DNA of 64,000 nucleotides, from assembly GCA_965370295.1 (NCBI GenBank), contig CBDUSO010000003.1, positions 7,059-71,058 of the forward strand, read 5' to 3'. The translations under genes were made by a program, and so were the position numbers. The DNA comes from an uncultured bacterium (lineage in GTDB: Bacteria; Caldisericota; Caldisericia; JAAYUI01). A model generated the notes under the pieces. It was not told the DNA's origin, did no database searches, and saw nothing but the letters and a program-made list of their open reading frames with translations. Of the stretch, positions 4,591 to 59,035 are shown piece by piece (the stretch's first letter is position 1; each line of letters opens with the position of its first letter).

Positions 4591-4602
4591 GATGGAGGTT
4601 AT

Positions 4603-4821: not shown

Positions 4822-4843
4822 AGAAGACTGGAGGAAGCACACT

Positions 4844-4957: not shown

Positions 4958-4967
4958 GAGTATGTAA

Positions 4968-5339
4968 ATGCCACGAATTTCAGGTGTAGACATTCCAGCT
5001 AACAAACGTGTAGATATTTCTCTGCGTTACATCTACGGCATTGGTCCTGTCAATGCTCATGAGGTTGTCGAGAAGGCCGGTATTGATCCCTTAAAGAGAA
5101 TGAAAGAGCTCACAAAAGAAGAGCTTGAGAAGATCAATGAGGTTCTAAACAACGATTATAAGGTTGAGGGAGACCTCAGACAAGAAGTCACCCAGAACAT
5201 CAAACGCCTTATTGAAATCGGTTCGTACAGAGGTCTCAGACACAAACGCGGTCTCCCTGTCAGAGGACAGAGAACACGTACAAATGCACGTACCCGTAAG
5301 GGTAGATCTCATGCAGTCGGCATTTCAAGAAAGAAATAA
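4968..5339 (+). CDS. rpsM: 30S ribosomal protein S13
   Basis: [15 protein letters not shown]… is an S13 N-terminus. AGGAG RBS upstream. Confidence 0.9.
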
Positions 5340-5351
5340 GGAGTAAGGGAT

Positions 5352-5726
5352 ATGGCTAAGAAAAAAAGAGTAAAAAAGCTGGTCTCTGAGGGACGAATCT
5401 ATATTCATTGCAGTTTCAACAACTGCATTGTTTCTATCACTGACAAAGATGGCGGTGTGGTAGCATGGTCATCCGGTGGTGAGAGTGGTTTCAAGGGAAC
5501 AAGAAAAGGAACAGGATTTGCAGCCCAGGTAGTAGCCCAGAATGCTTGTAAAAAAGCAATGGACATGGGTATGAAAGAAGCCAGATTGTTTGTCAAAGGT
5601 CCGGGTTCTGGCAGAGAAACTGCAATCCGTTCAATAGGTAACTCAGGTATCACAATAACCGCAATCAAAGACATCACTCCAATTCCACACAACGGATGCC
5701 GTCCACCAAAGATCAGGAGAGTATAA
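5352..5726 (+). CDS. rpsK: 30S ribosomal protein S11
   Basis: 124 aa with S11 sequence. Confidence 0.9.
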
Positions 5727-5729
5727 AAG

Positions 5730-6362
5730 ATGGGTAGATACACAGGACCAGTCTGCAGACTTTGCAGAAGAGAAAAAAACAAGCTCTATCTCAAGGGTGC
5801 AAGATGTTTTGGAGCAAAGTGTCCACTCGAAGGGAACTATCATATTCCCGGAATGCACGGACCAAAGAAGAGACCAAGAGAAAAGATTTCTGATTATGGA
5901 CTTCACCTCAGGGAAAAACAGAGAGTAAGAAGAACATATGGAATGATGGAGAATCAGTTCAAGAATTATTTCGTGGTTGCCAAAAATCAGAGAACTATTC
6001 CAACCGGTGACAAACTGCTTGAGCTCCTGGAGAGAAGACTCGATAACGTTCTGTATCGTGCATCTCTTGCCCCAAGTCGAACATCAGCAAGACAGATTAT
6101 CAACCATGCTCACATCAGAGTGAATGGTAAGAGATTGGATATCCCCTCATACATCGTCAAACCCGGTGACTCCATTGAAATCAAACCAAAGGCAAGAAAA
6201 ATTAATCTGATCGAAGAAGCTATCAAATCACCTGTCACACCACCATCATGGATGACATTTGATGAAAAAAACTTTAAAGTTGAAATTCTTAGAATTCCAA
6301 CGATTTCAGACATAGACTCGACCGTCAACATCCAGCTTGTGGTTGAGTATTACTCAAGGTAG
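5730..6362 (+). CDS. rpsD: 30S ribosomal protein S4 (Cys4 N-terminal type)
   Basis: MGRYTGPVCRLCRREKNKLYLKG…C…C, followed by an S4 RNA-binding domain. Confidence 0.9.
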   Translation: MGRYTGPVCRLCRREKNKLYLKGARCFGAKCPLEGNYHIPGMHGPKKRPREKISDYGLHLREKQRVRRTYGMMENQFKNYFVVAKNQRTIPTGDKLLELLERRLDNVLYRASLAPSRTSARQIINHAHIRVNGKRLDIPSYIVKPGDSIEIKPKARKINLIEEAIKSPVTPPSWMTFDEKNFKVEILRIPTISDIDSTVNIQLVVEYYSR

Positions 6363-6373
6363 AGGGGTAAAAA

Positions 6374-7969
6374 GTGTTTCCACTTGCTAGTCTTGAACTC
6401 AAGACCATCGAAGAGGATGCCTTCCTGGGGCGTTACACATTAGAACCTCTTCATCCAGGATATGGAGTACTAATTGGCAACAGTTTGAGAAGGGTTATGC
6501 TCTCCTCAATCAAGGGTGCCTCTCCTATCGCACTCCGAATTGACGGTGTTCCTCATGAATTCTCCGTGATTGAGGGTGTGGTAGAAGATGTTGTTCAGAT
6601 CGTTCTTAATCTGAAAAAACTCGTGGTTGCCATGGATACTGATGAAATCCGAACACTAACACTCGATGCTTCTGGTGAAAAGATGGTTACTGCGGCTGAT
6701 ATTATTCCCGATATTGATACCACCATCGTGAACCCGGAACTTCACATCGCAGAACTTTCATCACCAAACTCAACTCTTCGAATGGACATAATGGTATCCA
6801 AAAAGAGGGGTTACGTTCCCATTGTCAAAAACAAAATGGAAGGTTATCCCATTGGTACCATCTGGCTCGATGCCATGTTTACACCGGTCAAAAATGTCAG
6901 ATTTTCTGTTGAGCAGACATTAATTGAACAGTATCTGGACTTTGAAAGATTGAGTATCGATATCCTTTGTAACGGTGCAATTCCACCCCGTGAAGCATTG
7001 CTCCAGGGACTCCAGATACTCTCAGATTACTACACTGTGATTGCACAACCTGAGCTTCTCAAAAAAGAAGAAGAGGGACTTGAAGAGATGCTGGAAGAAA
7101 AGCTTGGTCAACCACTTGACACAGCAGTTCCAGGCATTTCTGCAAAAACCCACCATCTTCTTGTTTACGAAGGAATCAAATCACTTCGTGACCTCCTCAT
7201 GCGTGAGCAGGATGAAATCAAAGCAATTCGTGGAATCAGCACAAAGGCTCTCTCCTCCCTCATGAAGGCGTTAAACAATTCCCCAGATTACGAATTGATT
7301 TCACAGTACACATTCCCTCTCTTTGGTGAAGAATCAGCTGTAGAAGTTTCCGATCCAGTCGAAGAGGAACCCAAGAAAAAATCTCAGAAAGAACCAGTTT
7401 CCGTAACTCCCGAGGTTGAAGAAGAAATTTCAGAACCAGAGGAAGAAACTGTTCTTGAAACTGAAGAATTAAAAATTGACAAAACCGTAACTGGTGAGGC
7501 AGATGTCCCTCAGGAAGCATTGAACTATCAACTTGAAGATATTTCACTTGCAAAACACACCATGAACTTCCTTGAAGAAAATGGTGTTACTACCCTTGTC
7601 CAGTTGGTAAGCAGATCCAGAGATGAAATTCATGAGATGAAAGATTTCAAGGATAAGATTATCACTGAAATCGAAAATAAACTCGAAAAATTGGGTCTTC
7701 AACTCTCATCAGACAAGAGTTTTGAGTCCATGGATAAGGCAGCCCAGGAGAGAACAATTCGTGAAATGGAGATTGAAGTCTTCATCGCAAATGATGTTCC
7801 AATCCCAAGCACATCCCAAAAGGCACTCGAACAAAAAGGGATAAAAGTTGTTGGTGGACTCATGGATTTGGGAAAATCCGCACTTAAAGGAAAATTGAAA
7901 TTCTCAGGAAAAACAATAAAGACGATAGAAAAGAGACTCCAAGAATGGGGTCTTGAGCTCAAGGAGTAA
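6374..7969 (+). CDS. rpoA: DNA-directed RNA polymerase alpha subunit with extended C-terminus (three alpha-CTD-like HhH modules)
   Basis: GTG start after a GAGGGG RBS. The alpha-NTD spans aa 1 to about 230. Three modules match the alpha-CTD helix-hairpin-helix pattern, separated by an acidic E/P-rich linker. Total length is 531 aa against about 330 aa in typical bacteria. Confidence 0.9.
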   Translation: MFPLASLELKTIEEDAFLGRYTLEPLHPGYGVLIGNSLRRVMLSSIKGASPIALRIDGVPHEFSVIEGVVEDVVQIVLNLKKLVVAMDTDEIRTLTLDASGEKMVTAADIIPDIDTTIVNPELHIAELSSPNSTLRMDIMVSKKRGYVPIVKNKMEGYPIGTIWLDAMFTPVKNVRFSVEQTLIEQYLDFERLSIDILCNGAIPPREALLQGLQILSDYYTVIAQPELLKKEEEGLEEMLEEKLGQPLDTAVPGISAKTHHLLVYEGIKSLRDLLMREQDEIKAIRGISTKALSSLMKALNNSPDYELISQYTFPLFGEESAVEVSDPVEEEPKKKSQKEPVSVTPEVEEEISEPEEETVLETEELKIDKTVTGEADVPQEALNYQLEDISLAKHTMNFLEENGVTTLVQLVSRSRDEIHEMKDFKDKIITEIENKLEKLGLQLSSDKSFESMDKAAQERTIREMEIEVFIANDVPIPSTSQKALEQKGIKVVGGLMDLGKSALKGKLKFSGKTIKTIEKRLQEWGLELKE

Positions 7970-31770: not shown

Positions 31771-31902
31771 TGTCTCTCTCTACGTCTTTCCCGTAAAAAC
31801 GGGAATCTAGGGTAGCAAAAAAGCGTATTCATATTTTGGAAAAACAATTGTTGAATCAGATAAGTTTTTTGTTTTTCATAAATGTGTACTCAGCTCCAAG
31901 AA

Positions 31903-31932
31903 CCCTGGATTCCGCATCAAGTGCGGAATGAC
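31903..31932. repeat. palindromic repeat, copy 1 (ccctggattccgcatcaagtgcggaatgac)
   Basis: 8-bp stem ATTCCGCA/TGCGGAAT. A near-identical 30-mer occurs at 38425-38454. Both lie about 110-135 nt upstream of a tRNA gene. Confidence 0.7.
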
Positions 31933-32037
31933 AAAGGAGGGCAAAAAGCGGACATCTCCCCTTGAAAAAGGGGAGCATAAACCGGAATGACGATGTATCT
32001 AATTGACTACCAACACACAAAACGTAAACTCACACGT

Positions 32038-32129
32038 GGAGAGATGGCTGAGCGGTTGAAGGCACCTGATTCGAAATCAGGAGTGTGGGGTTTCCTGCAT
32101 CGGGGGTTCGAATCCCCCTCTCTCCGCCA
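32038..32129 (+). tRNA. tRNA-Ser (anticodon CGA), CCA encoded
   Basis: Acceptor GGAGAGA/TCTCTCC, anticodon loop TTCGAAA, long variable arm, T-loop TTCGAAT, 3' GCCA. Confidence 0.85.
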
Positions 32130-32144
32130 TGGAAGGGAGATATT

Positions 32145-32918
32145 ATGCCAGAGAGTGTGCTAGACGCAATGCCTATCGTTGTTGCAGTACTTGGAGCTGT
32201 ATTGACCGGTTTCGTTAGTTTTTTGGTGTCCCGTTATAGTATTAAAGTTACAATCAGGGAAATGGTTTCTATTGAGTACAAGAAAACCAAAGCAGAACTA
32301 GCTTATGCAGAATATGTAAGATGTAAAAATGCATTTTACCAGGAACTGTACCATAATATTGTTAGTGCATTTGGTTATGCAAAAGATATCAAAAATGGAC
32401 CGGTAAGCTTTGGCTTTGATGATGACTCAGTGGATATAGTAGACGCAGAATTATTAATGCAAGACCGAAAAATACCAAACAAATCACAAGCAAAAGTGCT
32501 AAATTTATTCAGACAACCAAAAGATAATAGAGTTGCTTTTATAGAGCTAGAAACCGTCTTAGTTGTTGATTACCAAAACCAATGTAACGAAAGCATTAGA
32601 GTGTTGAACAATAGTATTGTCAGAGGTTATATTTATATGGCTGTGGAGTTATACGATAGGTGCAAATCTCTGTTGAAGAATATTGAAAATATTTTCAACA
32701 ACAGCAACAGGATAGGTTGTCTAAATGGAATAAAAAATCCTAAATATTTTAGTATAAAGGAATCAAAAAATAACATAACAGTAGAAAAACTAATGAATAG
32801 AAATTCACAAATATTAGACTCAGTCAGCAAATCGTTATTGGATATTGCTAAAGAAATAAAAGAAGAACTGGATAAACCGTTATCAGCTATTATGGATGAT
32901 GGTAGTAGTAAAAAATAG
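32145..32918 (+). CDS. hypothetical membrane-anchored protein (AT-rich islet)
   Basis: ATG start 15 nt after the tRNA-Ser 3' end. One N-terminal TM. GC content is clearly lower than the surrounding genes. No recognisable motif. Confidence 0.45.
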   Translation: MPESVLDAMPIVVAVLGAVLTGFVSFLVSRYSIKVTIREMVSIEYKKTKAELAYAEYVRCKNAFYQELYHNIVSAFGYAKDIKNGPVSFGFDDDSVDIVDAELLMQDRKIPNKSQAKVLNLFRQPKDNRVAFIELETVLVVDYQNQCNESIRVLNNSIVRGYIYMAVELYDRCKSLLKNIENIFNNSNRIGCLNGIKNPKYFSIKESKNNITVEKLMNRNSQILDSVSKSLLDIAKEIKEELDKPLSAIMDDGSSKK

Positions 32919-36985: not shown

Positions 36986-37029
36986 GACAGTAACCAGATA
37001 GTTATTATTTATTTTTGAAAATACAAAAA

Positions 37030-37056
37030 GGGAGTCATGAACTGACTCCCTTTTTT
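37030..37056 (+). terminator. rho-independent terminator after porB
   Basis: GGGAGTCA-tgaac-TGACTCCC hairpin followed by TTTTTT. Confidence 0.7.
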
Positions 37057-37110
37057 ATTATGCGGGGACAAGGATTCCTACAGGTTATCGATATTCATCT
37101 TGCTATGATT

Positions 37111-37213
37111 GTCATTCCTGAGAAATCGGGAATCCAGGAGATTAAAGAATTGAATTCAAATTCTGAAAAATCAACAATCAACTAGACAAGATTTCTGTTT
37201 TCTCAGGAATGAC
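37111..37213. mobile_element. MITE-like element with 15-bp terminal inverted repeats
   Basis: GTCATTCCTGAGAAA (37111-37125) is the exact reverse complement of TTTCTCAGGAATGAC (37199-37213). The 70-nt core is about 92% identical to 38325-38395. Confidence 0.55.
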
Positions 37214-37232
37214 AAGTCCTTATTTTCTTAGT

Positions 37233-37261
37233 TTGACAATATTAGTCTTTAGAAATAAAAT
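37233..37261 (+). promoter_or_regulatory. near-consensus sigma70 promoter of the TIR gene
   Basis: TTGACA-N17-TAAAAT lying 40 nt upstream of the GAGGAGG RBS and ATG 37301. Confidence 0.5.
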
Positions 37262-37300
37262 GTGTACTTGTTGAAATGAAATCAGAGGAGGCTTTAGGGT

Positions 37301-38275
37301 ATGTTTACGATTGAATATAAACTTGATAGTGATTTTGGGAAGGAACGGTTTTGGGTGTATATGGATTGGTCATACATGGAGGGTAATGAGGAGGGTATTG
37401 TTCTGTATTTTGATATTCCTGTAAATAATCCAAATGCAAATCGTGAACAGCTTTGGGAGGAATTCAATGCTTTTCTAAGAAGAGAAAAGGTTGAATGGTT
37501 AATCAAAGATGATGAAGATTATATTCTTGATTTTGACAATCTTCTTAATGACATCAGGACGGGAGATCGATATGAAAAAAGATGTACCAATTTCCCAGAT
37601 GTAGAATGGTTCAACGGAAAACTCGAAGTGCCTATTCGGCAGGGTGGTGTATCAGTAAATTCAGGCTCAGGTGATCCAAATGACTTGTATTGCACTTACG
37701 ACTTAACGTTGCTCAAGGCTCAGATTGAAAAAAGAAAAAGAGATATTGAAGAAATAAAAAAATTGCAAGCACCCAAAATAATTTTTCTAAGTTGTGCACA
37801 CGAAGACCGTAAGCGCATAGATGAATTTCAAAAGACATTAGAAGTTATAGGCTATGATTGTTGGTTTTATGAAAACGATAGTATTGTAGGAAAGCCTTGT
37901 TCAGAAGAATATTTGGCTAAAATAAAGAATTCAAGAGTAGTTGTATACTTCATTACTGAATCGTTTACTGAAAAGATAAAAAATACTGGTAGTGGTGTAT
38001 ACAAAGAGCTTTTTGCAGGTGTTGAAAGATACCAATCTGAAAATGAGAAATTCAAGATTATACCAATAATAATGCCTCCTCTGAGGGTAATTTATAAAAT
38101 ATTAAGAAAATTGGGAGTAAGGAAAATTAAGATTCCCAGTATTATAAAAGAGACTGATATTACATATTCGGAGGGTAAATCAGAACTTGAGTGTTTACGC
38201 ATTATTCTTAAGAGTATCCAAGATTTGGAATTGAACGAAGCAACAGATTACTTAGGTGCTTTTTCTTTTGAATGA
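37301..38275 (+). CDS. TIR-domain protein with unknown N-terminal domain (candidate antiphage/NADase effector)
   Basis: Residues ~160-300 match TIR motifs: KIIFLSCAHEDRKRI (box 1), DCWFYENDSIVGK (BB-loop region), SRVVVYFITESF, and GVYKELFAGVE (alphaC with the conserved Glu). The gene is AT-rich with a strong RBS. Confidence 0.6.
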   Translation: MFTIEYKLDSDFGKERFWVYMDWSYMEGNEEGIVLYFDIPVNNPNANREQLWEEFNAFLRREKVEWLIKDDEDYILDFDNLLNDIRTGDRYEKRCTNFPDVEWFNGKLEVPIRQGGVSVNSGSGDPNDLYCTYDLTLLKAQIEKRKRDIEEIKKLQAPKIIFLSCAHEDRKRIDEFQKTLEVIGYDCWFYENDSIVGKPCSEEYLAKIKNSRVVVYFITESFTEKIKNTGSGVYKELFAGVERYQSENEKFKIIPIIMPPLRVIYKILRKLGVRKIKIPSIIKETDITYSEGKSELECLRIILKSIQDLELNEATDYLGAFSFE

Positions 38276-38305
38276 TATATCCAGTAATAGGTCGCCATAC
38301 TCTTC

Positions 38306-38395
38306 GTCATTCCCGCTTTACGCGGGAATCCAGGAGGTAAGGAATTGAATTCAAATTCTGAAAAACCAACAATCAACCAGACAGGATTTCTGTTC
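38306..38395. repeat. second, truncated copy of the MITE-like element (left TIR-like hairpin present, right TIR absent)
   Basis: gtcattcccgctttacgcgggaatccaggaggtaaggaattgaattcaaattctgaaaaaccaacaatcaaccagacaggatttctgtt aligns with 37111-37198. Confidence 0.5.
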
Positions 38396-38424
38396 CATAC
38401 AAATATTCACACGCTTTGATAGCA

Positions 38425-38454
38425 CCCTGGATTCCGCATCGAGTGCGGAATGAC
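38425..38454. repeat. palindromic repeat, copy 2 (ccctggattccgcatcgagtgcggaatgac)
   Basis: 29/30 identical to 31903-31932. A further gtgcggaatgac fragment lies at 38500-38511. Confidence 0.7.
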
Positions 38455-38588
38455 GAGGATGGATGTGGGATGACAAAAGAGTATTATAAAATAACGAGGG
38501 GTGCGGAATGACAAAAGCAATAATTCCCCAGCCAAAAAATGGTTTCTTGATTTTACTCCCAACCCCATATATAGTTGTCTGTCAGTGA

Positions 38589-38665
38589 GGCGACGTGGCC
38601 AAGTGGTCTAAGGCGATGGTCTGCAAAATCATTATTCAGGGGTTCGAATCCCCTCGTCGCCTCCA
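38589..38665 (+). tRNA. tRNA-Cys (anticodon GCA), CCA encoded
   Basis: Acceptor GGCGACG/CGTCGCC, anticodon loop CTGCAAA, T-loop TTCGAAT, 3' TCCA. Confidence 0.8.
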
Positions 38666-38684: not shown

Positions 38685-39575
38685 TTATCCCAGCAATTCC
38701 TTCTTTATTTCGTCACCCGGTTTTTTCTGTTTGTCGGTAAGCGAGATAAATAGTGCTGTCTCAACGATAACAACGAGAAGAATTCCCAACTGAGATGCGA
38801 CAGTTCTGATGAATTGATTTGAAGTTGCATAGTCGGTGAAATAGGTGATTGTCATCGAGAGCAGAATAATCGGAGCTATAACCAAAACTATCAGTATTAC
38901 TTTTCCAGAACTGATGTGGATTGAATACTTGATGCTGTCAAATAATCTTTCGGATGATTCAAGTCGAATATAGCTGAGAAATGTGATTCTCAGGAATACA
39001 AAAACCAAAAAGATAACGGTTACAGATGCGACGATTGACCATGGTATGAAGCTCGTATTATTATTGATGAAATCCGGAGTAACAACATAGATTTGAACGA
39101 ATGTACCAATCAGTCCAGCAAAAAGAATTGGCGAGAGCGTCAACCACATTGCCCCTAAAAATCTCATAGAGGGTTTAACAGAAGAGGTAATTGCTTTACT
39201 GAGCGAATCCTTGTTTCTGAGAAGTTTGATGATTACCCAGCTTGCAAACCCGACCAAAAGTATCTGTATGGTGAGAGTGAGGAACACTTGAATTCCGCTA
39301 TTCATTGCTTTGAAAAATACTGTACTCTCCCCGCTTTCAGCAATAACTGGGATTCCACCTCTTATGATTTCTCCAAAAAGACTATCACTCCAGAGTCTCC
39401 AGGGAGAGAGACCGCCCCATCCAGACCCAACAAGCTTTGCCATGATTCGTTGAACAAAGAATGTGAGTGGGTATGAAACCGCTATCATGATTCCAAAAAC
39501 AATAATGCAACTCTTGAGGCACCTGTCTTTTATTTCAATCAGGACTGAAATAAATCTAGCAAATTGTTCAGCCAT
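38685..39575 (-). CDS. polytopic membrane protein, paralog 1 of 5 (unknown family)
   Basis: 296 aa with 6-7 TM segments. Shares topology and motifs with the four genes upstream. Confidence 0.55.
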   Translation of the reverse strand: MAEQFARFISVLIEIKDRCLKSCIIVFGIMIAVSYPLTFFVQRIMAKLVGSGWGGLSPWRLWSDSLFGEIIRGGIPVIAESGESTVFFKAMNSGIQVFLTLTIQILLVGFASWVIIKLLRNKDSLSKAITSSVKPSMRFLGAMWLTLSPILFAGLIGTFVQIYVVTPDFINNNTSFIPWSIVASVTVIFLVFVFLRITFLSYIRLESSERLFDSIKYSIHISSGKVILIVLVIAPIILLSMTITYFTDYATSNQFIRTVASQLGILLVVIVETALFISLTDKQKKPGDEIKKELLG

Positions 39576-39577
39576 TT

Positions 39578-40369
39578 CTATTTGACTGCTTTCAGGTATA
39601 ATGGTGCGAGCAAGGTGAGTTGGATGATCAGGATCAGGGAGCTAATTAATTCTGTGACAAGGGGAAGATTCCCTGTCAGATTGAAAAAAACTTTTGTCAT
39701 GATTGCAGTTACAATGACGATTCCAGCCACAATCCCGGTGAACATTTTTGTTTTATCCATCGAGGAACCAAGGGCAGAAAACCAGGATATTTTTTCGACC
39801 ACCACACAAAATGGTGTGAAGGCAAATCGGATATAAACGTAAAGAACAACGACCACTAAAATAATAAATATGAGCAAACCAGCTATGACATATACCAAAG
39901 CTCCTAGTCCAAATCCAACAGCAAAGGAGAGCAAGAGTATAATCGCAATCATAAGGTTTACCCCCATCATTCTGCAAAGATTTTTCCAGCCTGCCTTTAG
40001 GAATTGGGAGATTGCTGATTTGGAATTTGATTCTTTTTGTGTCAGATAGTTTGCGATCCCGCCCTGGATGAAACTGAAAACAATGAGGAAGCTGAACACA
40101 TTTAGAGATATTATTATAGTCAACGTTTTCCACATGGCAGGTGGGATTGCCTGAAGGAATGGAACCCCTGCTTTTATCTGGGTTGAACCGAACTCAAAAA
40201 TCTCAGAGATCATGACCTGAGAACTAACAATTCCACCTTGTGTTACCCAGAAAATAATACTTGGAATCAGTAGAAACAATGCTGAGACAAGCCATATCAT
40301 CAGAAAATCACTTGTTCTCTCTCTGATAAATCTTCCCAGAAATGTTAACGATAGTTGTGTGTTGCTCAT
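39578..40369 (-). CDS. polytopic membrane protein, paralog 2 of 5
   Basis: 263 aa. A …KAGWKNLCRMMGVNLM… motif is shared with the paralogs. Confidence 0.55.
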   Translation of the reverse strand: MSNTQLSLTFLGRFIRERTSDFLMIWLVSALFLLIPSIIFWVTQGGIVSSQVMISEIFEFGSTQIKAGVPFLQAIPPAMWKTLTIIISLNVFSFLIVFSFIQGGIANYLTQKESNSKSAISQFLKAGWKNLCRMMGVNLMIAIILLLSFAVGFGLGALVYVIAGLLIFIILVVVVLYVYIRFAFTPFCVVVEKISWFSALGSSMDKTKMFTGIVAGIVIVTAIMTKVFFNLTGNLPLVTELISSLILIIQLTLLAPLYLKAVK

Positions 40370-40387
40370 ACCCTGGAGTATAGCTGT

Positions 40388-41326
40388 CTATGATTTCTGG
40401 TCAATGAGAATATTCAATTTTAATTCTTTGTCTGCGATGGGAGTGATTAGAATCACGGTGAAAGTGATTATAAGTGTGAAGATAATTTGGGAACCACCAA
40501 AGCTGTGGCTGGACATGAGCAACGGGAGAATCCCAAAGCCAAGAGGAAAAATTGAAAATGTAAACAATGTCCAGAAATATTTGGCAGAGCGATTCCAACT
40601 TAAAACCAAACACTTCCCCGGTGAATAGTCAGTGTTCATCACATAAAATGGGGCAAGCATGAATCTGGCACTGCGATAAATCATCGCATACAACCCAACA
40701 GAAAGAATTATCCACAATTCCAACCTGCCAAAAACAATTACAGAGACAGTGTAGCAAAATGCAAAAAGAAATGCTGTAGCGATGAAAGTTCTGATTGTGA
40801 TGAGAATCATTATTCCAACCATTCGAACATATTGAGAGAGTTTGATACGGAAAAAAGTGACAAGACCAGAATTCTCGTCAGATTTTGAAGTGAACACGTT
40901 CACAAGACCACAGAGAATATATGGTAAAACAAGCAAAAACCAGACAAGCCCAATGAGTACCCATCGCCAGATTAACCACAAAACAAGCTGTACCTTCAGG
41001 TCAAGTTCGTGATTGAAAGTAATTCCGCCTTCATAATCAAATGAACCAAGTGTTTCCAATAATTCTTCGAAGAGATATGTCCCAGTAAAAACTTCGTTGA
41101 AAGCCTGTTTTTCTATCGATATTTCATTTATTTTTACGGACTTTCTTGAGCTTCTTGTGACTTCCTCTGTTTGGTTATTTATTTGATAGGGGTCATTTCC
41201 AAAAATTGCAAGGTTGATTGCAGGGGATAGCAGAGAGATGAGGAAGCAGACTACGATTATCAGAGCCAGCTCTGACCCCCATCTCTTCAGTGCAGTTGAT
41301 AAGAAATCTAGTGATTTACCAATCAT
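40388..41326 (-). CDS. polytopic membrane protein, paralog 3 of 5
   Basis: 312 aa. Confidence 0.55.
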   Translation of the reverse strand: MIGKSLDFLSTALKRWGSELALIIVVCFLISLLSPAINLAIFGNDPYQINNQTEEVTRSSRKSVKINEISIEKQAFNEVFTGTYLFEELLETLGSFDYEGGITFNHELDLKVQLVLWLIWRWVLIGLVWFLLVLPYILCGLVNVFTSKSDENSGLVTFFRIKLSQYVRMVGIMILITIRTFIATAFLFAFCYTVSVIVFGRLELWIILSVGLYAMIYRSARFMLAPFYVMNTDYSPGKCLVLSWNRSAKYFWTLFTFSIFPLGFGILPLLMSSHSFGGSQIIFTLIITFTVILITPIADKELKLNILIDQKS

Positions 41327-41338
41327 GTTGTGTTATTT

Positions 41339-42175
41339 TTACCAGGTAGTTCCTTCTGTTGATTCGTTGCTTATTTCTGATTCATCACCAACAAGTTCTG
41401 ATGCATGTTTGTAGAGTGGGTAGAACAGGAAAGCTTGAGAGAGAACAGTTATTACTATACTGATAATTAATGCCACATATAATCCCGAAACAAGTGATAA
41501 GATTATGTAATTAACAATACCTAGAAGCAGTGCTAATCCAAATAGACTCCAGTATACACTCTTTGCTTTTTTGAAAGATATACCGATGGTTGATAAAACT
41601 GGTGTGTCAGTTAATGCAGCTTCGTACATCATAAACATGAAAAATAGTGCGACAGCTGTTACCGCAAACGTGATAATGAAAGCGACAAAGAGTATGCCAC
41701 TGATATTCCCCGACATAAAAACTGAGAAAAAGATCAGTCCTAGAATCAGCCCGACTATTAGCCCGATCACAAAGGTTAGAAGTGCCTGAAGTAACGATGC
41801 ACCCAGCACACGACCAAACTTTTTAAGTCCCATATTGAAAAATAATGCCACATGGTTGTCTTCGTTTTTCTTCGAGTTTAAGTATGAGAGAAATCCTGCT
41901 GTGGTGAACGATGTAATCACTATCAAGATTATCACGAACAGAAATAATAATCCGACTAGATTACCAAGTTGTGGGGCTACGCCTGTACCTGCCCCAACAT
42001 TTGGAGACTGGAACATCCCGTATGGGTTTGGCATTGGTGTCATACCTGGACCAAGCGAACCAGAAAATAATAAGTACGGAAGGAGAGTGAAGCCAATAAT
42101 AATAAGTAGAATGATAAAAAATGCTGATGGATTTCTGGAAATCAACGATATAACGTTATTTATATATTTTTTCAT
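41339..42175 (-). CDS. polytopic membrane protein, paralog 4 of 5
   Basis: 278 aa. MKKYINNVISL… and …GFLSYLNSKKNED…FGRVLGASLLQAL… motifs. Confidence 0.55.
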   Translation of the reverse strand: MKKYINNVISLISRNPSAFFIILLIIIGFTLLPYLLFSGSLGPGMTPMPNPYGMFQSPNVGAGTGVAPQLGNLVGLLFLFVIILIVITSFTTAGFLSYLNSKKNEDNHVALFFNMGLKKFGRVLGASLLQALLTFVIGLIVGLILGLIFFSVFMSGNISGILFVAFIITFAVTAVALFFMFMMYEAALTDTPVLSTIGISFKKAKSVYWSLFGLALLLGIVNYIILSLVSGLYVALIISIVITVLSQAFLFYPLYKHASELVGDESEISNESTEGTTW

Positions 42176-42335
42176 GAAGTTTATTGTATTCAGTGAGTGT
42201 TAACGTGTCAAATGGAATTTCTGTGTGATTCACGTTTTCAGTTAATAATTTGTTGTTTTTTGTTGAAAAGAGGTGCTTTGAATGGGGACAAGGAATCAAA
42301 TTCTGATCCTCATCCCCAAAGAATGTTTATTTCAA

Positions 42336-43250
42336 TTATTCTGAAAATCCGCTTGCGTCAGGATTTTTGTTCTCTTCGTTCCTGAGTTTCTTGTAATGAG
42401 ATTCGAGAATTTTTCTGTCCATCTCATCCATTTGCCCTTTCTCTGCTCTGTCGGCCAACCATCTTTCTGTAGCCAAATTATAGAGTGGATAAAAAACAAA
42501 TGCCGTGAGATATCCGAATATTAGGTTTATCAAGAAGTATGAACCATAATACAATAGATCACCAAATTGTCTGAGCGCGCCTATCAGTAATGAAGAAACA
42601 ATTATCACAAATATCCAGAAAAACATCAACCAAAATACTTTCTTTGCTTTCTTGAATGAATTCGAAACCCACTCACCTACCACAGTTTCATCTTTGAGGG
42701 CAGCTTCAAATGTGATGAAATATGTGAACACCATCACAATGATTAATATGAGTGTGGATGCAATAATTAACCCAGAGCCTCCACCTGCTCCGCCACCAGG
42801 AGAGATTTGAAATATTGCCATAAGAATTGCAACGGCTATGGCAAGGGGAATGATATAAGCAAGCATCATGAGGTATTGCATCATGGTTGCACCTATCATT
42901 CTTCCCCATTTTCCAAATGCTGATTTGAAGAAGAAATTCACATACTCGTCTTTTTCTTGCCTCCCCTTTTTCAGATAGCTCAAAAAGCCACCTTCAATAA
43001 ACGCAGAAAAAATGCCAATGACCAGGATAGATAGCAACAGAAAAAGGAAGACTTCACCTGCTTGCCCAGTGATATATTCGTTTGTCCCCACCATACCTGT
43101 GGTTGAAATGTATTCCTGTGTGTTGAACACAAACTTATTGAAAAGAAACACAACAAGTGTCATCAACCCCCCGCAAATAAACAAAATCCACAGAAATGCA
43201 CCCGTATTATGCTTAACCAATTCAGAAACTTTTGATATATATTTTTTCAT
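42336..43250 (-). CDS. polytopic membrane protein, paralog 5 of 5
   Basis: Start placed at the MKKYISKV ATG by homology to paralog 4. The track ORF extends to ATG 43271. Contains …GFLSYLKKGRQEKDE…WGRMIGATMMQYL…. Confidence 0.5.
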   Translation of the reverse strand: MKKYISKVSELVKHNTGAFLWILFICGGLMTLVVFLFNKFVFNTQEYISTTGMVGTNEYITGQAGEVFLFLLLSILVIGIFSAFIEGGFLSYLKKGRQEKDEYVNFFFKSAFGKWGRMIGATMMQYLMMLAYIIPLAIAVAILMAIFQISPGGGAGGGSGLIIASTLILIIVMVFTYFITFEAALKDETVVGEWVSNSFKKAKKVFWLMFFWIFVIIVSSLLIGALRQFGDLLYYGSYFLINLIFGYLTAFVFYPLYNLATERWLADRAEKGQMDEMDRKILESHYKKLRNEENKNPDASGFSE

Positions 43251-43353
43251 AACGTTAATACTAACTAACATCTGATTTTTTTCAAGACGGGTTCAGTTGA
43301 CTAAACTTTGCTTGACCAGATTGGTTTACCGATGTATCTTTGTCGGAGGTTAT

Positions 43354-51690: not shown

Positions 51691-52107
51691 ATGCCAGAGA
51701 TTGGAGATTACAATCTGCCAGAGGACCTTTATTACCACAAGGAACATTTTTGGGTAAAGGTAGACGGAAACACGGCCATTGTTGGAATGGATGATTTCGG
51801 AACAAAGCTTGCCGGTGAAATCTCTTTCATTGAACTTCCAATGGAAGACGACGAGGTTGGTTTTGATGAGCAGGTGGGTTCACTTGAAACAGGTAAGTGG
51901 TTGGGAAAAATTTACAGCCCAGTATCTGGAACAGTTTCAGCTCTCAACGAAGACATCGAGGATGATCCTGCAATCGTAAACGAATCACCATACGAAAACT
52001 GGCTTTTCAAAGTTGAAATGGGCGACAAGTCCGAACTTGAAAAGTTGATCACAGGTGCAGCTATTGCCCCGTGGCTCGAAAAAGAAATTGAAGAGCGTGG
52101 AAAGTAA
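51691..52107 (+). CDS. GcvH-like lipoyl-carrier paralog 3
   Basis: …VGSLETGKWLGKIYSPVSGTV… with a GAAGGAGG RBS. Its 3' end overlaps the start of the large membrane protein gene. Confidence 0.6.
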   Translation: MPEIGDYNLPEDLYYHKEHFWVKVDGNTAIVGMDDFGTKLAGEISFIELPMEDDEVGFDEQVGSLETGKWLGKIYSPVSGTVSALNEDIEDDPAIVNESPYENWLFKVEMGDKSELEKLITGAAIAPWLEKEIEERGK

Positions 52108-54805
52108 AAAGAAGTTCAAGGGGGCGGGATTATTTCTCGCTCTCTTTCTGATTCTTACACTCATCTTTCCGTTTTTTCCACCCGCAAATGCTCAGCAGAA
52201 ACCCAATGTCCAAAAACTCGTTGCATACTTCGTGCTTAAATCTGATGGAAGTGCAAGGGTCAAATTAAACCTTCAAATAAAAGAGACCGAATCAAGAAGC
52301 TCTCTTGTTTTAGGTCCATTCATGTCTGGTTATTCAAATCTTACAGCTGTAATCTACAAAGGCTCTTTGGACGGCTTTATTTTAGATACCAATTTAAGCT
52401 CTGTCCCTGTTTCAGTCAGTAACTACGATGGAAACATCAAGCAATTCAATTATTCCAGCTCCTCTTCGTACAACGAAACCTATGTTATTCACCTTGAATA
52501 TAATCTCCCCGATATTTCCGTCAAAAGTTTCATGAATGGTTACAGGGATATTGGCTGGTCACCGTTTCAAGCATCTCAAACAATTGACAACGTTATTGTC
52601 CAAGTTGTTTTGCCAATATCGTTACCAGATGACGTTGATACTCCGGAAGAGGTAACGAGCGATCTGGTCAACGAAAAAGGTTTCATCATGGCAACCGACT
52701 CGTCTGGTGACTCAAAAACCTCTGACAAAAAATTTGACAGATTTGTTTTTTTCCCGACACCAGACAGTGCAAGTGGAATGAATTTCCTCTCATTCCATGC
52801 TGAGAAAAAAAATGCACCAGCATATTTTCATGCTCAGGTAACATTCAGTCTCCCCGAGAAATATTTTGGTGGAACACTTCCAGATGAAGTTATAAAGAAA
52901 ATTTTCAAACTAAATGTTTCAACGATTGCAGATGGTTTGAACGATATAACAGTTCTTAACACACCAAACATGACCTCCACAAAAAAAATCATCATCACAC
53001 GAAGAATTGGTGATGGTGTTGAAGAACTTGTTACGGGTGAACTCAAGGAAGATGGATTTGAGAAGTATTCAGTTACCGATAACTATGACCCGACAACTTT
53101 GGAATCAATCACCTATAAAGCCTATCTGTTGAAGGTTCCAAGAGACAAAAAAGACCGATTTCAGAAGCTGAGATATGTGAGTTTTGATGTTGGACGACTC
53201 AAAGCAGAATTTGAAATTCTCAGCTCCACTCAAGAGGTCTCTTTTGAGCAGGCACCTGGACAGTCAGTTCTTTCTGCGAAGCTGGACATCACGCTTGACA
53301 AAAAGGGAACTGCAATCGTAAAGGTTGAGAGAGATTCTCTCTTTAAGGGCGATCAGAGTCTCTGGAGTGATTGTCTGCACTTTGATTTTGATGATTATCA
53401 ATATCTCACGGATTGCTGGTTTACAGATTTCAAAGATGACAAGAAAAACGAGTATATCTTGTCCTCCAGGGGATCAGAGGGAACATACAATATAAGCCCT
53501 GAAATTGGCTGGGTCGATTGGTATTGGGGTGCTTACAACGAGACTCGTCATTTTGAATATGGATACAAAATCTATGGCTCTTTTGTAAAAACTAATGATT
53601 GGTCGACGAACGAGGAAAAGCAGGAAATTTTATTGCTTCCACTCATAAGTGCCGGTGTTTCAAACATTCCAAAACTTGAAGTAATCATAACCGTACCAGA
53701 TGGATTCCCTGCACCAACCTTTTCTGAGGGTCTGGAAAATGTAGCAGTTGAAACAAGTGGCAACACACACAACTTTATTTTAAGTGGCAATCAGGTTGAC
53801 GATTATTCCAGCATGATGTTCCCAGAGGGTACGTTCAAAAAAGGCTTACTTTGGTCCAGGTGGTGGATTGACCATAAGGGAACCATCTATTTCTGGTTGT
53901 TTGTGTTGCTCATTTTCCTGTTCACCTATTGGTTGATAAGCAGAGGAAAGAGGGCGGGTCGAAGAAATTTGATCAAAAAGGCTACCAAATATGAGTCTCC
54001 TGAGATTGAACTTGAAACCTACACGATTGAGGGGAAAGTTCCTGATCTTTCTGCAATTGAAACCGCAATGTATCTTGGCAAACATGACAAGGTCATCGCT
54101 GGAATTGTGTTGCAACTGTCAGCTAAAGGTGCGATAACGATCATCACTCACAGACCGCTTCAACTCGAAAAAACAAATCCAAAACTGGCAACAGAGCCTT
54201 ACGAAAAAGTTCTGATGGAAAACATTTCCCCCGAAGGAACAATCTCAAGAGAAGCCGTCCCAAAAATTATTGACTCAGTTTCAAAAGAACTCTCAGTCAA
54301 GATTTGGGATGCTGACCCAACTGCAACCAGAACGCATTACACCAATGTTGTGAAAAAACGCTGGGATGACATACTCACAGATTCAACTCCAAGGAATTCA
54401 TCATACTTCCAAAGAAACATGGCATGGCTTATCATTCACAATGATTACGCCAAAAATTTCAATAAAATTCCAAAAGCCCAACGACCCAAGACGGACAGTT
54501 GGGCTGTTAAGGCTGTTGACGGAATTGAAGATTTCACTGAGGGAATTGTCTCCAGTGTCCAAAGTTCCGTTGCAAAGGCAACAAACGCAATTGAACAGGC
54601 ACTTGGTTTGGGAACTCCAAACGTAGAAAATCTGTCATACGATGCCTGCCATTCCGCTTGTCATTCAGCCTGCCACAGTGCTTGTGTGCATGATGCCTGC
54701 CATTCTGCTTGTGTTCATTCAGCCTGCCATTCTGCCTGCCACTCTGCCTGCGTCCATTCTGCCTGCCATTCTGCCTGCCATTCAGCCTGTGTATCGGGAA
54801 TCTGA
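52097..54805 (+). CDS. single-pass membrane protein (DUF2207-like architecture?) with cytoplasmic C-terminal (AC[V]HS)x12 Cys/His repeat tail; candidate substrate of the downstream radical SAM enzyme
   Basis: From GTG 52097 the product begins with a signal peptide, MESKKKFKGAGLFLALFLILTLIFPFFPPANA. The track ORF instead starts at GTG 52055. About 590 aa are extracytoplasmic, followed by a TM helix IYFWLFVLLIFLFTYWLI and then SRGKRAGRR (positive-inside). The cytoplasmic domain is about 290 aa and ends …NLSYDACHSACHSACHSACVHDACHSACVHSACHSACHSACVHSACHSACHSACVSGI. Confidence 0.6.
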   Translation: MESKKKFKGAGLFLALFLILTLIFPFFPPANAQQKPNVQKLVAYFVLKSDGSARVKLNLQIKETESRSSLVLGPFMSGYSNLTAVIYKGSLDGFILDTNLSSVPVSVSNYDGNIKQFNYSSSSSYNETYVIHLEYNLPDISVKSFMNGYRDIGWSPFQASQTIDNVIVQVVLPISLPDDVDTPEEVTSDLVNEKGFIMATDSSGDSKTSDKKFDRFVFFPTPDSASGMNFLSFHAEKKNAPAYFHAQVTFSLPEKYFGGTLPDEVIKKIFKLNVSTIADGLNDITVLNTPNMTSTKKIIITRRIGDGVEELVTGELKEDGFEKYSVTDNYDPTTLESITYKAYLLKVPRDKKDRFQKLRYVSFDVGRLKAEFEILSSTQEVSFEQAPGQSVLSAKLDITLDKKGTAIVKVERDSLFKGDQSLWSDCLHFDFDDYQYLTDCWFTDFKDDKKNEYILSSRGSEGTYNISPEIGWVDWYWGAYNETRHFEYGYKIYGSFVKTNDWSTNEEKQEILLLPLISAGVSNIPKLEVIITVPDGFPAPTFSEGLENVAVETSGNTHNFILSGNQVDDYSSMMFPEGTFKKGLLWSRWWIDHKGTIYFWLFVLLIFLFTYWLISRGKRAGRRNLIKKATKYESPEIELETYTIEGKVPDLSAIETAMYLGKHDKVIAGIVLQLSAKGAITIITHRPLQLEKTNPKLATEPYEKVLMENISPEGTISREAVPKIIDSVSKELSVKIWDADPTATRTHYTNVVKKRWDDILTDSTPRNSSYFQRNMAWLIIHNDYAKNFNKIPKAQRPKTDSWAVKAVDGIEDFTEGIVSSVQSSVAKATNAIEQALGLGTPNVENLSYDACHSACHSACHSACVHDACHSACVHSACHSACHSACVHSACHSACHSACVSGI
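54644..54792 (+). repeat. tandem 12-nt coding repeats (gcctgccattct variants, about 12 units) encoding the AC(V)HS tail
   Basis: Periodicity is directly visible in the sequence. Antisense and out-of-frame ORFs over this stretch (54534..54893 -, 54642..54839 +) are artefacts of the repeat. Confidence 0.85.
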
Positions 54806-56187
54806 TGGAACTAAAAAAATATATAGAGAGTGTGATTGAAAGCACTCGTGAGCATATTTTCATCCGTGATGAAGATGGAATTTTGATAATCAAACCAAAT
54901 CGGGTTCATAATCTGAACCCGACTGCAACTCAACTTTTGAGCAGGATGTATCAAGAAGACCCCGATAACCCATACCAAGCCGTAATTGATATGGCTAAGG
55001 AGTTTGGTGAACCCGAAGAACGAGTTGCAACTGATGCAAAAAAAGTCCTTGATACACTTCTTGATCTGTTGAAAAATCCCTTTGCCATGGTGTCTGGCGT
55101 TAAGATGACAACCTTTGGCTCACACAAACGAGATTTGCCCGTTCTTTCGGAGATTGCTTTGACATATGGCTGTAACAACAAGTGTGTTTTTTGTTATGCT
55201 TCCTCCCCGGAACGTGTTGATGATGTTCCCCAGATGACAACCGACGAAGTCAAAAAAATTCTAAGAATTATCAGAGAAACTGCAAAGATTCCAACTGTCT
55301 CATTTACGGGCGGAGAACCCACAATGAGAAAGGATTTACCGGAACTTGTCGAGTATGCAAAGTCAATCGACATGCGGGTAAATCTCATCTCAAATGGAGT
55401 CTTGCTCGCAAGCGGTGACTTGGCTGAAAGGCTGGTTTCAGCAGGACTTGACTCTGCTCAGATTTCCCTTGAATCAAGCATTCCAGAGGTACATGACAAA
55501 GTTGTTGGAGTAAAAGGAACATTCGAAAAAACTGTTGCAGGATTCAAAAAAATAAAAAAACTTGGAATCCACTGCCATATCAACACAACAATCTGTGCGG
55601 ATAACTTTGCTACAATCACTGAACTGCCAAAGTTTGCACGAGACGAACTGGGTTTGGAGTACCAATCCATGAATATGGTAATTCGAACTGGGCATACCTA
55701 CGACAACCCGGACGAAATTGGATACACTGAGATTGCAAAGATTTTACCGAAGTTGCATGAATCAGCAAAGCAGGCAGGAATCAAACTTGTCTGGTATTCA
55801 CCAATTCCATTTTGCATCATAAACACAATTGCAGAGGGAATCGGTGGGACAACCTGTGCCGCTTGCGACGGGCTTCTCTCGATTGCTCCAAATGGTGATG
55901 TCCTCCCGTGTTCATCTTTCTCAGATGGAATCGGAAATCTTTTGAGAGAGCCATTTGAAAAAATCTGGTGGAACAGGCAAGCTCTTTATTTCAGAAAAAA
56001 AGAGTTTATCCCGCCCGTCTGCAAGGATTGCGACAGTGCTCCAATGTGTCAGGGGGCGTGTCCACTCTATTGGGATAACAGAGGAAACTTTGATGAAATC
56101 GGTGGAAGTTCAAAGTTGAGCTCTTCCATCTGGAAGCTCAAAAGAAAACTGGTTGGTCGCTCAAAACCAGTGATGGGGGTAAAATAA
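54805..56187 (+). CDS. radical SAM/SPASM-domain enzyme with N-terminal PqqD-like RRE domain (RiPP-type maturase)
   Basis: ATG 54805 overlaps the upstream TGA (TGATG). Residues ~20-95 are PqqD/RRE-like (…VHNLNPTATQLLSRMYQ…VIDMAKEFGEPEERVATDAKKVLDTLLDL). The rSAM motif is CNNKCVFC. The SPASM domain has 7 cysteines: CAACDG…C…C-KDC…CQGACP. Confidence 0.8.
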   Translation: MELKKYIESVIESTREHIFIRDEDGILIIKPNRVHNLNPTATQLLSRMYQEDPDNPYQAVIDMAKEFGEPEERVATDAKKVLDTLLDLLKNPFAMVSGVKMTTFGSHKRDLPVLSEIALTYGCNNKCVFCYASSPERVDDVPQMTTDEVKKILRIIRETAKIPTVSFTGGEPTMRKDLPELVEYAKSIDMRVNLISNGVLLASGDLAERLVSAGLDSAQISLESSIPEVHDKVVGVKGTFEKTVAGFKKIKKLGIHCHINTTICADNFATITELPKFARDELGLEYQSMNMVIRTGHTYDNPDEIGYTEIAKILPKLHESAKQAGIKLVWYSPIPFCIINTIAEGIGGTTCAACDGLLSIAPNGDVLPCSSFSDGIGNLLREPFEKIWWNRQALYFRKKEFIPPVCKDCDSAPMCQGACPLYWDNRGNFDEIGGSSKLSSSIWKLKRKLVGRSKPVMGVK

Positions 56188-57844: not shown

Positions 57845-57883
57845 ATAAGTAGTATGTGATTAGAAATATCTGAGGAGGTTTTG

Positions 57884-59035
57884 ATGAGAGGATTATTGAT
57901 TTGTACGGTGGTTGTGATGTTGGTGTCTACGTTGATTTCATGTGGCGGAGTTGGCGTAAACAGCTACTCGCTTGATGGTATCCAGTTGTCTGCTGGCGGT
58001 AGTAGTGAAGCTGTGTTTGTGGCAAAAGAAAATGATTCATCAGATGAAAAAGCAGAACAGACACAGGCAATTTCTTTTGCTTTGAATAATGCGATAAAGG
58101 ATAGACCAGACCTTGCTTTGATGCTTGAAGCTGACATTGTTGATGATGAAAATAATTTTCTTTTCATGGGTTCAGACCATTTTCTCAAAACCCTACAATC
58201 CTTTGCAGATGAAAACTATCCTAAAGCAAAGAAGATGTTTCTAGAGATGACTTGTGAGGAGTTTTATTACTGCACTGCAGTTGGGTACGAAGTGGCAAAC
58301 TCAAATAATGTAAAAACAACATCTGTTGATGTATATATTGACACTGAGCATAAAAATATAGATATAAACCCATCATTTGAAGATATAATAAATCATGGAT
58401 TCTGGGCTACATACTTTGCCAGAATCCATGATTTATTGATCAATGATATTGGTGTTATATCTGAAGATATTGTGTTAGATAACTCACTTGATATGGAATC
58501 TCATGGTATATCATTTGATTCTACAGCAGATATTATACAATTATCTATTATCAATCTTAGTATGGATTGTTTAATCCATAACACGATACAAAATTTTCCT
58601 GAACTGAAAAAAGATGGTCGTGGTTTGGTAAACCAGTTGATGACCCATAAGATGTTGGATCATCTCCAACTATATGGATTTGAAAAGAAACTTTTTACAA
58701 GTTACAGAAGTCGTTTCTCTGAGATTGGCACACAGACCCACTATATGTTATTACTTATCAAAATAAACACCAATCCAGGCGAGAAACAACTACGAATCGG
58801 AGACATATTTGCTGCGAATGGTGAATATCTTTTCCAACTTAGTAAGGGATATGGTATGCATAAATCTGATGCAGAAGGAATAAATGAATCTATTATGGGC
58901 ATGTTTATAGGTGGGAATGATGTTGTAAAATTAGGACATAGGTGGGACAAATGGTTTCGAGATGAGTATCCAAATCCGAATGATAACAAGTTGTACAAAG
59001 GATTATTACAGAATTTAAGTCTTAAAATCCCATAA
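57884..59035 (+). CDS. lipoprotein, unknown function
   Basis: GAGGAGG RBS upstream. Lipobox LISCGG. 383 aa. Confidence 0.5.
   Translation: MRGLLICTVVVMLVSTLISCGGVGVNSYSLDGIQLSAGGSSEAVFVAKENDSSDEKAEQTQAISFALNNAIKDRPDLALMLEADIVDDENNFLFMGSDHFLKTLQSFADENYPKAKKMFLEMTCEEFYYCTAVGYEVANSNNVKTTSVDVYIDTEHKNIDINPSFEDIINHGFWATYFARIHDLLINDIGVISEDIVLDNSLDMESHGISFDSTADIIQLSIINLSMDCLIHNTIQNFPELKKDGRGLVNQLMTHKMLDHLQLYGFEKKLFTSYRSRFSEIGTQTHYMLLLIKINTNPGEKQLRIGDIFAANGEYLFQLSKGYGMHKSDAEGINESIMGMFIGGNDVVKLGHRWDKWFRDEYPNPNDNKLYKGLLQNLSLKIP

Follow-up and report, generated by a model that had tools for sequence, protein, structure and literature searches.

A divergent TIR-domain gene in a polymorphic, repeat-structured spacer beside tRNA-Cys of a Caldisericota bacterium: a candidate stand-alone defence gene

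What does a single AT-rich gene encode, and how is it gained or lost, when it stands in a short spacer of an otherwise core chromosomal region? This question is raised by a TIR-domain gene in the 64,000-nucleotide stretch of contig CBDUSO010000003.1 (assembly GCA_965370295.1, from an uncultured Caldisericota bacterium) that was analysed here and is called the window. The genes of the window are those of a core chromosome, encoding ribosomal proteins, SecY, Adk, RpoA, an ECF transporter, TruA and EF-P, as well as ClpC, GltX, porGDAB and the glycine cleavage system. On balance, the product of the TIR gene is probably a stand-alone defence protein of the NADase type, with an N-terminal domain that would sense a trigger or mediate assembly, encoded in a polymorphic islet built from repeats. 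The gene has a TIR fold with a conserved Glu, is under purifying selection, is present in some strains and absent from others through insertions and deletions bounded by repeats, and lacks a conserved neighbour; by analogy with other single-gene TIR proteins, its product would have NADase activity and an antiphage role. The window gene is a divergent member of the already known single-gene bacterial TIR proteins found in accessory DNA.

A preliminary description of this DNA had proposed a C-terminal TIR domain, together with a domain search to examine it. The Pfam family TIR_2 (PF13676) matches residues 161-259 of the 324-residue protein with 44.4 bits, above the gathering score of 28 (E=2.7e-11). 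The domain has a flavodoxin-like TIR fold superposable on solved TIR domains, and TIR matches of the protein clearly outrank its deoxyribosyltransferase matches. Residues F162, L163, S164, W188, G197, S211, F217, E236 and F251 are invariant in an alignment of 107 family sequences. Compared with solved sequences, the family profile finds BtTir (2e-8) and AbTir (1.6e-7), and also PdTIR, Cat1 and BtpA. The invariant Glu of the family, E236, aligns to the Glu of the AbTir motif 'NYELD', which is the catalytic Glu of enzymatic TIR domains, and to that of 'QKELD' in PdTIR. The catalytic Glu, on which the preliminary description had made an NADase function depend, is present at the expected position as judged by sequence alignment alone, and the domain appears to be of the bacterial AbTir/BtTir type with this putative active-site residue kept.

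A word-indexed search of 5.8 billion clusters found the query protein alone, as the sole member of its 90% cluster. When 1.84 billion representatives were searched exhaustively with HMMER, 34 relatives were found at E<=1e-3, including an ortholog fragment with 78% identity over residues 1-155 and a set of proteins of ~260-290 residues whose alignment extends across the N-terminal region as well as the TIR domain. The profile of this set retrieved 196 proteins, typically of ~270 residues, whose annotation goes no further than 'TIR domain-containing protein' and which belong to diverse bacteria (Thiobacillus, Methylocucumis, Rhodoblastus, Halotalea, Methylobacterium, Burkholderia and Uhrbacteria). 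One further match, P0003 (1,724 residues, ~19 tandem repeats; E=2e-21 to residues 18-49), was treated as spurious; its repeats are Cys-rich and of low complexity, and it looks like a translated DNA repeat.

The N-terminal domain, described earlier as ~160 residues of unknown kind, comprises ~155 residues and has no match in Pfam or among PDB sequences. While the single-sequence AlphaFold model of the protein was useless (predicted local distance difference test score, pLDDT, 40), the alignment-based model reaches a mean pLDDT of 79 and predicts a compact alpha/beta domain, with values of 80-92 at residues 30-90. A subset of the TIR family has this domain conserved, with W66 and G106 among the conserved residues. 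The N-domain found in other proteins of the same TIR subfamily is unrelated to it (profile-profile hhalign probability 0.1%), so that this subfamily is joined to no fewer than two N-domains of separate kinds. The exchange of N-domains on an unchanging TIR domain fits a sensor-plus-effector design, in which the N-domain may be the trigger-sensing or assembly module. The window protein has the stand-alone layout of an N-terminal module followed by a C-terminal TIR domain.

The frame of the gene, its promoter-like site and the strong ribosome-binding site (RBS) that had been described before were all found (Table 1). Promoter-like sites in the 2-kb region around the gene are not above chance (5 found, 6.9 expected). 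Both promoter hexamers are kept at the orthologous locus of a related contig, L081, where the spacer between them measures 16 nt, and the RBS AGGAGG is also kept there. The marked AT-richness of the gene relative to its neighbours was borne out as well, with a G+C content of 0.335 and a G+C content at third codon positions of 0.271, the lowest among the 49 window open reading frames (ORFs) of at least 150 residues (mean G+C content 0.412, standard deviation 0.027; z=-2.8 for the TIR gene).

The spacer between porB and tRNA-Cys was compared across relatives. L081, a 13-kb contig from the Joint Genome Institute (JGI), was reached through the ortholog fragment, and L334 (a 471-kb contig), L335-L338 and L330-L333 were reached through porB cluster-mates. 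The order ClpC, GltX, deaminase, HD/OB protein, tRNA-Ser, por operon, spacer, tRNA-Cys and membrane paralogs is conserved in L334 and L335, and L081, L336, L337 and L338 show the same order over the parts covered by their shorter contigs. In L335-L338, whose flanks are ~77% identical to the window, the spacer has 214 nt, with no repeats and no gene (state 0). In L334, with flanks 91% identical, it contains one full repeat element and a hairpin array, and no gene (state 1). The window has a short element, the TIR gene and a full element (state 2), and L081, with flanks 91-92% identical, has a left hairpin, a DUF4917 gene, a right hairpin, the TIR ortholog and a full element (state 3). Since the spacer occurs in four states across Caldisericia relatives, the TIR gene is accessory and strain-variable. 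The synteny comparison suggested in the preliminary description thus finds the gene absent between porB and tRNA-Cys in L334 and L335-L338, with conserved flanks. By contrast, the footprint of horizontal acquisition reported there does not hold as that of a recent arrival. The L081 ortholog (5517-6437; 70% amino acid identity) occupies the same site, collinear and in frame, which makes the spacer an old polymorphic islet.

The frame of the L081 ortholog is open except for one in-frame TAA at codon 156, where the window has CAA; this stop lies between the parts for the N-domain and the TIR domain and stems either from a recent nonsense mutation or from a fault in the assembly. Between the window and L081, the TIR gene has a synonymous divergence (dS) of 0.92 and a ratio of nonsynonymous to synonymous divergence (dN/dS) of 0.22. 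The corresponding values for the por and membrane genes are 0.15-0.39 and 0.02-0.17, with amino acid identities of 90-99%. The purifying selection indicated by the ratio of 0.22 marks the TIR gene as a real protein-coding gene. Its silent-site divergence, ~3x that of the flanks, fits allele exchange at the islet; a faster silent-site evolution of a weakly expressed, AT-rich gene is a possible source of the high dS.

The repeats of the islet are present in three copies in the 64 kb, at two loci, and copies occur at the same loci in relatives. In Neisseria, dRS3 is an ATTCCC-N8-GGGAAT hairpin, and Neisseria intergenic mosaic elements (NIMEs) consist of dRS3 repeats flanking RS units (PMC3898611). 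In copy 1 of the window element, a 57-nt core stands between a left end that is dRS3-like (GTCATTCC..GGAATCCAGG) and a right end that is short (..GGAATGAC). Its 26-nt arms are 88% complementary and include the perfect 15-mer GTCATTCCTGAGAAA / TTTCTCAGGAATGAC, and it folds into one long hairpin (z=-3.7); the short element with perfect 15-bp terminal inverted repeats that had been noted upstream of the gene is therefore present. The second copy is not truncated, as had been supposed; together with the palindrome at 38425 it forms one full element of ~155 nt, with the left hairpin GTCATTCC-CGCTTTACGCG-GGAATCCAGG, the right hairpin CCTGGATTCC-GCATCGAGTGC-GGAATGAC, 13-nt arms that are 92% complementary and a fold z of -3.5. 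The 57-nt core of copy 2 is 93% identical to positions 37143-37199 of copy 1, with a chance expectation of 0. There are four hairpins of this form in the 64 kb (31907-31932, 37111-37135, 38306-38331 and 38429-38454), all at two tRNA-proximal spacers.

Both elements (107 and ~155 nt) are like miniature inverted-repeat transposable elements (MITEs) in that they are short, do not code for protein and have terminal inverted repeats. The element ends show no evident target-site duplication, and no transposase or integrase is present among the 41 window ORFs scanned with Pfam. The exact 24-nt element core had no match in one metagenome scan. An integron gene cassette was also considered and rejected: the element ends are GTCATTCC / GGAATGAC and not RYYYAAC/GTTRRRY cores, no integrase was found among the scanned ORFs, and the genes carry their own promoters.

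The differences between the spacer states have their ends within hairpin or element sequence that is directly repeated. The one element of L334 aligns to copy 1 and to copy 2 of the window, and also to the hairpins H1 and H3 of L081; the pairing of one element with both copies is the expected product of direct-repeat recombination. The reverse route, recombination with incoming DNA that shares the repeats, would give the same pattern at the spacer. Recombination at repeats fits because the boundaries of the insertions and deletions coincide with directly repeated hairpins, and it is the most likely route of gene turnover at the islet. The four-state locus (empty, repeat only, TIR, DUF4917 plus TIR) offers a compact natural example of the turnover of small, putative defence genes, which takes place here in repeat-structured spacers beside tRNA genes.

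Among the 41 window ORFs, no SIR2, SLOG or Macro partner was found with Pfam, and the neighbours of the TIR gene are porB and tRNA-Cys. The earlier statement that a ThsA-like partner is missing is correct for the window; it does not extend to the closest gene-bearing relative, L081, where the gene immediately preceding the TIR ortholog, in the same orientation, is a SIR2-like DUF4917 gene (4253-5407, 384 residues). This gene sits between the left and right hairpins, where the window has the 107-nt element, and its stop codon falls inside the right hairpin. Its product matches the PADLOC family PDC-S21 (E=5e-42), which is catalogued as a single-gene defence candidate, and DUF4917 is the only family among its precomputed Pfam matches, which include neither a SLOG nor a Macro sensor domain. 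Proteins of this family resemble sirtuins, and ThsA has served as a threading template for them (PMC10421069). The DUF4917 gene of L081 is divided from the TIR gene by a hairpin and by the latter's separate, conserved promoter. Five other genomic contexts of the family, on long contigs, have no common neighbour and none that resembles the L081 DUF4917 by blastp. One of them, L082, has a PLD-nuclease-like gene and a SIR2-like (SIR2_2) gene, the latter ~4 kb away and in this context only; in L089, an AriA/mad3-like ATPase is encoded near the TIR family member.

In the stand-alone reading, an infection cue would bind the N-domain and the TIR domains would cluster, forming a composite active site; the active protein would then cleave NAD+ to ADP-ribose (ADPR) and/or a cyclic ADPR isomer, and the infection would be aborted. 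SpbK is a single-gene TIR NADase that a phage portal protein activates through TIR clustering, and trigger sensing or assembly of this kind has been shown for it (PMC12847820). Gain, loss and exchange of the gene would proceed through recombination at the dRS3/NIME-like repeats, and not by transposition of a MITE composite. If active, the protein would be a divergent and phylogenetically remote (Caldisericota) addition to the single-gene TIR defence proteins, and its N-domain may be a new infection sensor.

Several observations weigh against this reading. TIR domains may also serve as signal generators or scaffolds. The window protein is an outlier of its family, since, of 64 positions conserved to 85% or more in relatives, it has retained just 19 (the family SH..DK, for example, is replaced by SCAHEDR), and its activity could be altered or lost. 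The sole ortholog, in L081, has an in-frame stop, and only three of the six contexts have defence-gene neighbours. The search of defence databases that had been suggested gave weak matches: PADLOC gives ThsB1 (E=1.7e-4, 19 bits) and PDC-S66 (E=4e-4), both in the TIR part, the latter confined to positions 142-216 of the 282-position profile, and NCBIfam gives no family match, its Thoeris models included. The PADLOC spbK model has no match to the window protein at E up to 10, and two relatives match it weakly and partially. The N-domain matched no known family or solved homolog by sequence, and fusions of this domain to other effectors were not found in a profile search that was insensitive, recovering 2 proteins.

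The neighbour found in L081 leads to the alternative that the TIR protein is the signal-producing, ThsB-like half of a Thoeris-like pair, whose effector would be the SIR2-like DUF4917 protein; the window would have lost this effector, and its TIR gene would be an orphan or act together with an effector from elsewhere in the genome. DUF4917 stands immediately 5' of the TIR ortholog on the same strand, it is sirtuin-like and threads onto ThsA (PMC10421069), SIR2 plus TIR is the composition of type I Thoeris, and there are the weak PADLOC ThsB matches. However, the hairpin between the two genes and the conserved promoter of the TIR gene separate them, DUF4917 matches a single-gene candidate (PDC-S21) and appears in Pfam without SLOG or Macro, and neither a DUF4917-like neighbour in the five other contexts nor an NCBIfam Thoeris match was found. 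Moreover, it is L081 that has the broken TIR gene, whereas the window gene is intact without DUF4917 and evolves with a dN/dS of 0.22, and a lost or distant partner is thus considered unlikely. A joint proposal goes further: TIR and the SLOG/Macro-less DUF4917 sirtuin would form an undescribed Thoeris-like pair, the TIR product switching DUF4917 on, and the bracketing dRS3-type hairpins would be sites at which a cross-phylum recombination system carries single defence genes into and out of tRNA-proximal spacers. We regard this combination as very unlikely. The mobility of the gene had been explained in the preliminary description by two flanking MITE copies forming a composite, transposase-mobilised unit with the TIR gene as cargo. 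Two copies in direct orientation do flank the gene, their cores are 93% identical, and relatives lack the gene. Nevertheless, the gene lies between repeat units: in L081 it is flanked by right-end and left-end hairpins of different units, and so stands between elements and not inside one. With no transposase or integrase among the scanned ORFs, no evident target-site duplication and no metagenome match of the exact 24-nt core, and with insertions and deletions located at repeated hairpins, exactly one element in L334 against element-gene-element in the window is what direct-repeat recombination (or its reverse) predicts, and the composite is exceedingly unlikely.

A role outside defence, in cyclic ADPR isomer signalling or interbacterial or host interaction, which has been proposed for proteins of the AbTir/TcpB type, or in NAD/nucleotide metabolism, would suit the absence of a conserved partner gene and the closest solved relatives by profile, BtTir, AbTir, PdTIR and BtpA, whose native roles are debated. 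It is given a low probability, as a low G+C content, a patchy distribution among strains and a defence candidate next door, as in L081, are what defence genes typically show, the pairing of a constant TIR with changing N-domains recalls immune proteins of the sensor-effector kind, and the TIR matches are well above those to deoxyribosyltransferases. The gene might instead be a decaying, functionless orphan in a degenerating islet, as could be read from the 19 of 64 highly conserved family positions kept, the TAA at codon 156 of the ortholog, the absence of DUF4917 from the window and of both genes from L334, and the solitary 90% cluster of the protein among 5.8 billion. Against this, the frame of 324 codons is intact, a dN/dS of 0.22 at a dS of 0.92 implies that purifying selection was at work for most of the divergence, the Glu and the core TIR residues are still in place, and the promoter and RBS are conserved; decay is accordingly judged quite improbable.

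Table 1. Features of the TIR gene, its islet and the repeat elements (positions in the window)
Feature	Position	Strand	Remarks
TIR-domain protein gene	37301..38275	+	324 aa, ATG start
Sigma-70-like promoter-like site TTGACA-N17-TAAAAT, TIR gene	37233..37261	+	consensus match (11/12)
RBS AGGAGG of TIR gene	37286..37291	+	9 nt 5' of ATG
N-terminal domain, residues 1-155, predicted alpha/beta	37301..37765	+	alignments, model
TIR domain core, residues 160-259	37778..38077	+	Pfam TIR_2, family alignment
E236 codon, putative catalytic Glu	38006-38008	+	sequence alignment
C-terminal extension, residues 260-324	38078..38272	+	characteristic of this TIR subfamily
Terminator of por operon, perfect 13-bp stem-loop with A/T runs on both sides	37025..37055	.	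left islet border
Repeat element copy 1, short form, 107 nt	37109..37215	+	inverted arms, core identity, folding
Repeat element copy 2, full-length, ~155 nt	38301..38459	+	collinear with third copy and relatives' single copies
Copy 2, left hairpin	38306-38334		
Copy 2, core	38338-38394		
Copy 2, right hairpin	38425-38454		
Repeat element copy 3, full, upstream of tRNA-Ser	31780..31935	+	collinear with copy 2
Two degenerate half-hairpin remnants (..GGGATGACAAAAG / ..GCGGAATGACAAAAG)	38458..38517	+	repeat comparison
Promoter-like site of tRNA-Cys	38547-38575	+	promoter scan
tRNA-Cys	38589-38665	+	right islet border

The terminator of the por operon is also kept in L081 and L334, and these two contigs have a longer hairpin array at the position of the half-hairpin remnants. 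Beyond the islet, a 277-residue ORF (32085-32918) that closely follows tRNA-Ser and the third repeat copy is, at a G+C content of 0.347, the second most AT-rich of the window. Neither L334 nor L335 conserves it, which makes it a second variable spot beside a tRNA, and it has no above-threshold Pfam match and no PADLOC match. A third AT-rich ORF (57881-59035, 384 residues; G+C content 0.351) is likewise without Pfam or PADLOC match. On the minus strand, positions 38685-43271 hold five consecutive genes for multi-pass membrane-like proteins of 263-312 residues. Their order is kept in L081, L334 and L335, copy number and length vary, and none of the five proteins has a Pfam family above threshold. 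At 54650-54789, where the ORFs 52055-54805 and 54709-56187 overlap, there is a tandem GCCTGCCATTC-type motif, which may be a low-complexity repetitive coding segment.

The dRS3-type hairpin is also found in other genomes. The pattern GTCATTCC-N10-12-GGAATCCAGG occurs at at least 120 loci in a metagenome scan and at least 120 in an IMG/VR scan (L090-L329), where ~5 chance matches would be expected by a rough estimate that assumes about 6e10 bases. Among the matches listed, the contigs with the hairpin range from 33 to 70% G+C and the inner stem covaries (CGC..GCG, GGC..GCC, CAC..GTG, TGC..GCA). The commonest variant in this set is the Nf1-target subtype of the Neisseria dRS3 (PMC3898611), and an inverted partner lies within 250 nt for 39 of the 228 hairpins, compared with 9 in the control direction. 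In some viral contigs (L215 38-8115, L312 2290-10069, L303 3658-8654), the hairpin, in one orientation, separates nearly all genes from one another, those for tape-measure and minor tail protein Z among them, and in L303 it lies directly 5' of an RBS and ATG. Its place in phage operons suggests an RNA-level role or one like that of repetitive extragenic palindromic (REP) sequences. Because it is widespread in bacterial and phage contigs, the hairpin is a general intergenic element and not a marker of defence cassettes; that it is common in such environmental contigs may be of broader interest. The window itself shows neither an Nf-type phage nor a Piv/IS110-type recombinase.

As a probable stand-alone defence protein, the window protein can be compared with several known systems. 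SpbK of the Bacillus subtilis element ICEBs1 (PDB 9phb) is a single-gene TIR abortive-infection protein; the window protein falls outside the PADLOC spbK model, and its host belongs to Caldisericota, not to Bacillota. The Tcp-type proteins AbTir, BtTir, PdTIR and BtpA are, of all solved sequences, those nearest to the family profile (E 2e-8 to 5e-4). They share with the family the FxSH..DK-type beta-A/alpha-A motif and the position of the catalytic Glu, and they also combine an N-terminal region with a C-terminal TIR domain. Their N-termini are coiled coils, whereas the window protein has a predicted compact alpha/beta N-domain and a C-terminal extension of ~65 residues. Manik and co-workers are said to have found in 2022 that AbTir and BtTir make cyclic ADPR isomers. 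The likeness to Thoeris lies in a TIR protein with weak ThsB matches and, in L081, an adjoining SIR2-like gene; unlike Thoeris, the window has no ThsA, DUF4917 is without SLOG or Macro in Pfam, and the pairing is not conserved in the family. With PDC-S66, a TIR family of PADLOC and, like PDC-S21, a single-gene candidate, the relatives reach E values of 1e-7 to 2e-14, compared with 4e-4 for the window protein; since only the TIR part of the profile matched (about positions 140-232 of 282), its N-domain differs from that of PDC-S66.

The repeats, finally, resemble those of Neisseria in several respects. The L334 copy has exactly the dRS3 form, ATTCCC-N8-GGGAAT, and the window copies have the forms ATTCCC-N9-GGGAAT and ATTCC-N11-GGAAT. 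The phylum is another one, Caldisericota, and copy number is low, with two loci in 64 kb. In form, the islet unit (a hairpin, 60-90 nt and an inverted hairpin) is like NIMEs, which are 30-160-nt units bracketed by hairpins in intergenic arrays. It has been proposed that the presence or absence of pilC1 is bounded by identical repeats (PMC3898611), and the gene of the islet is likewise present or absent between identical repeats.

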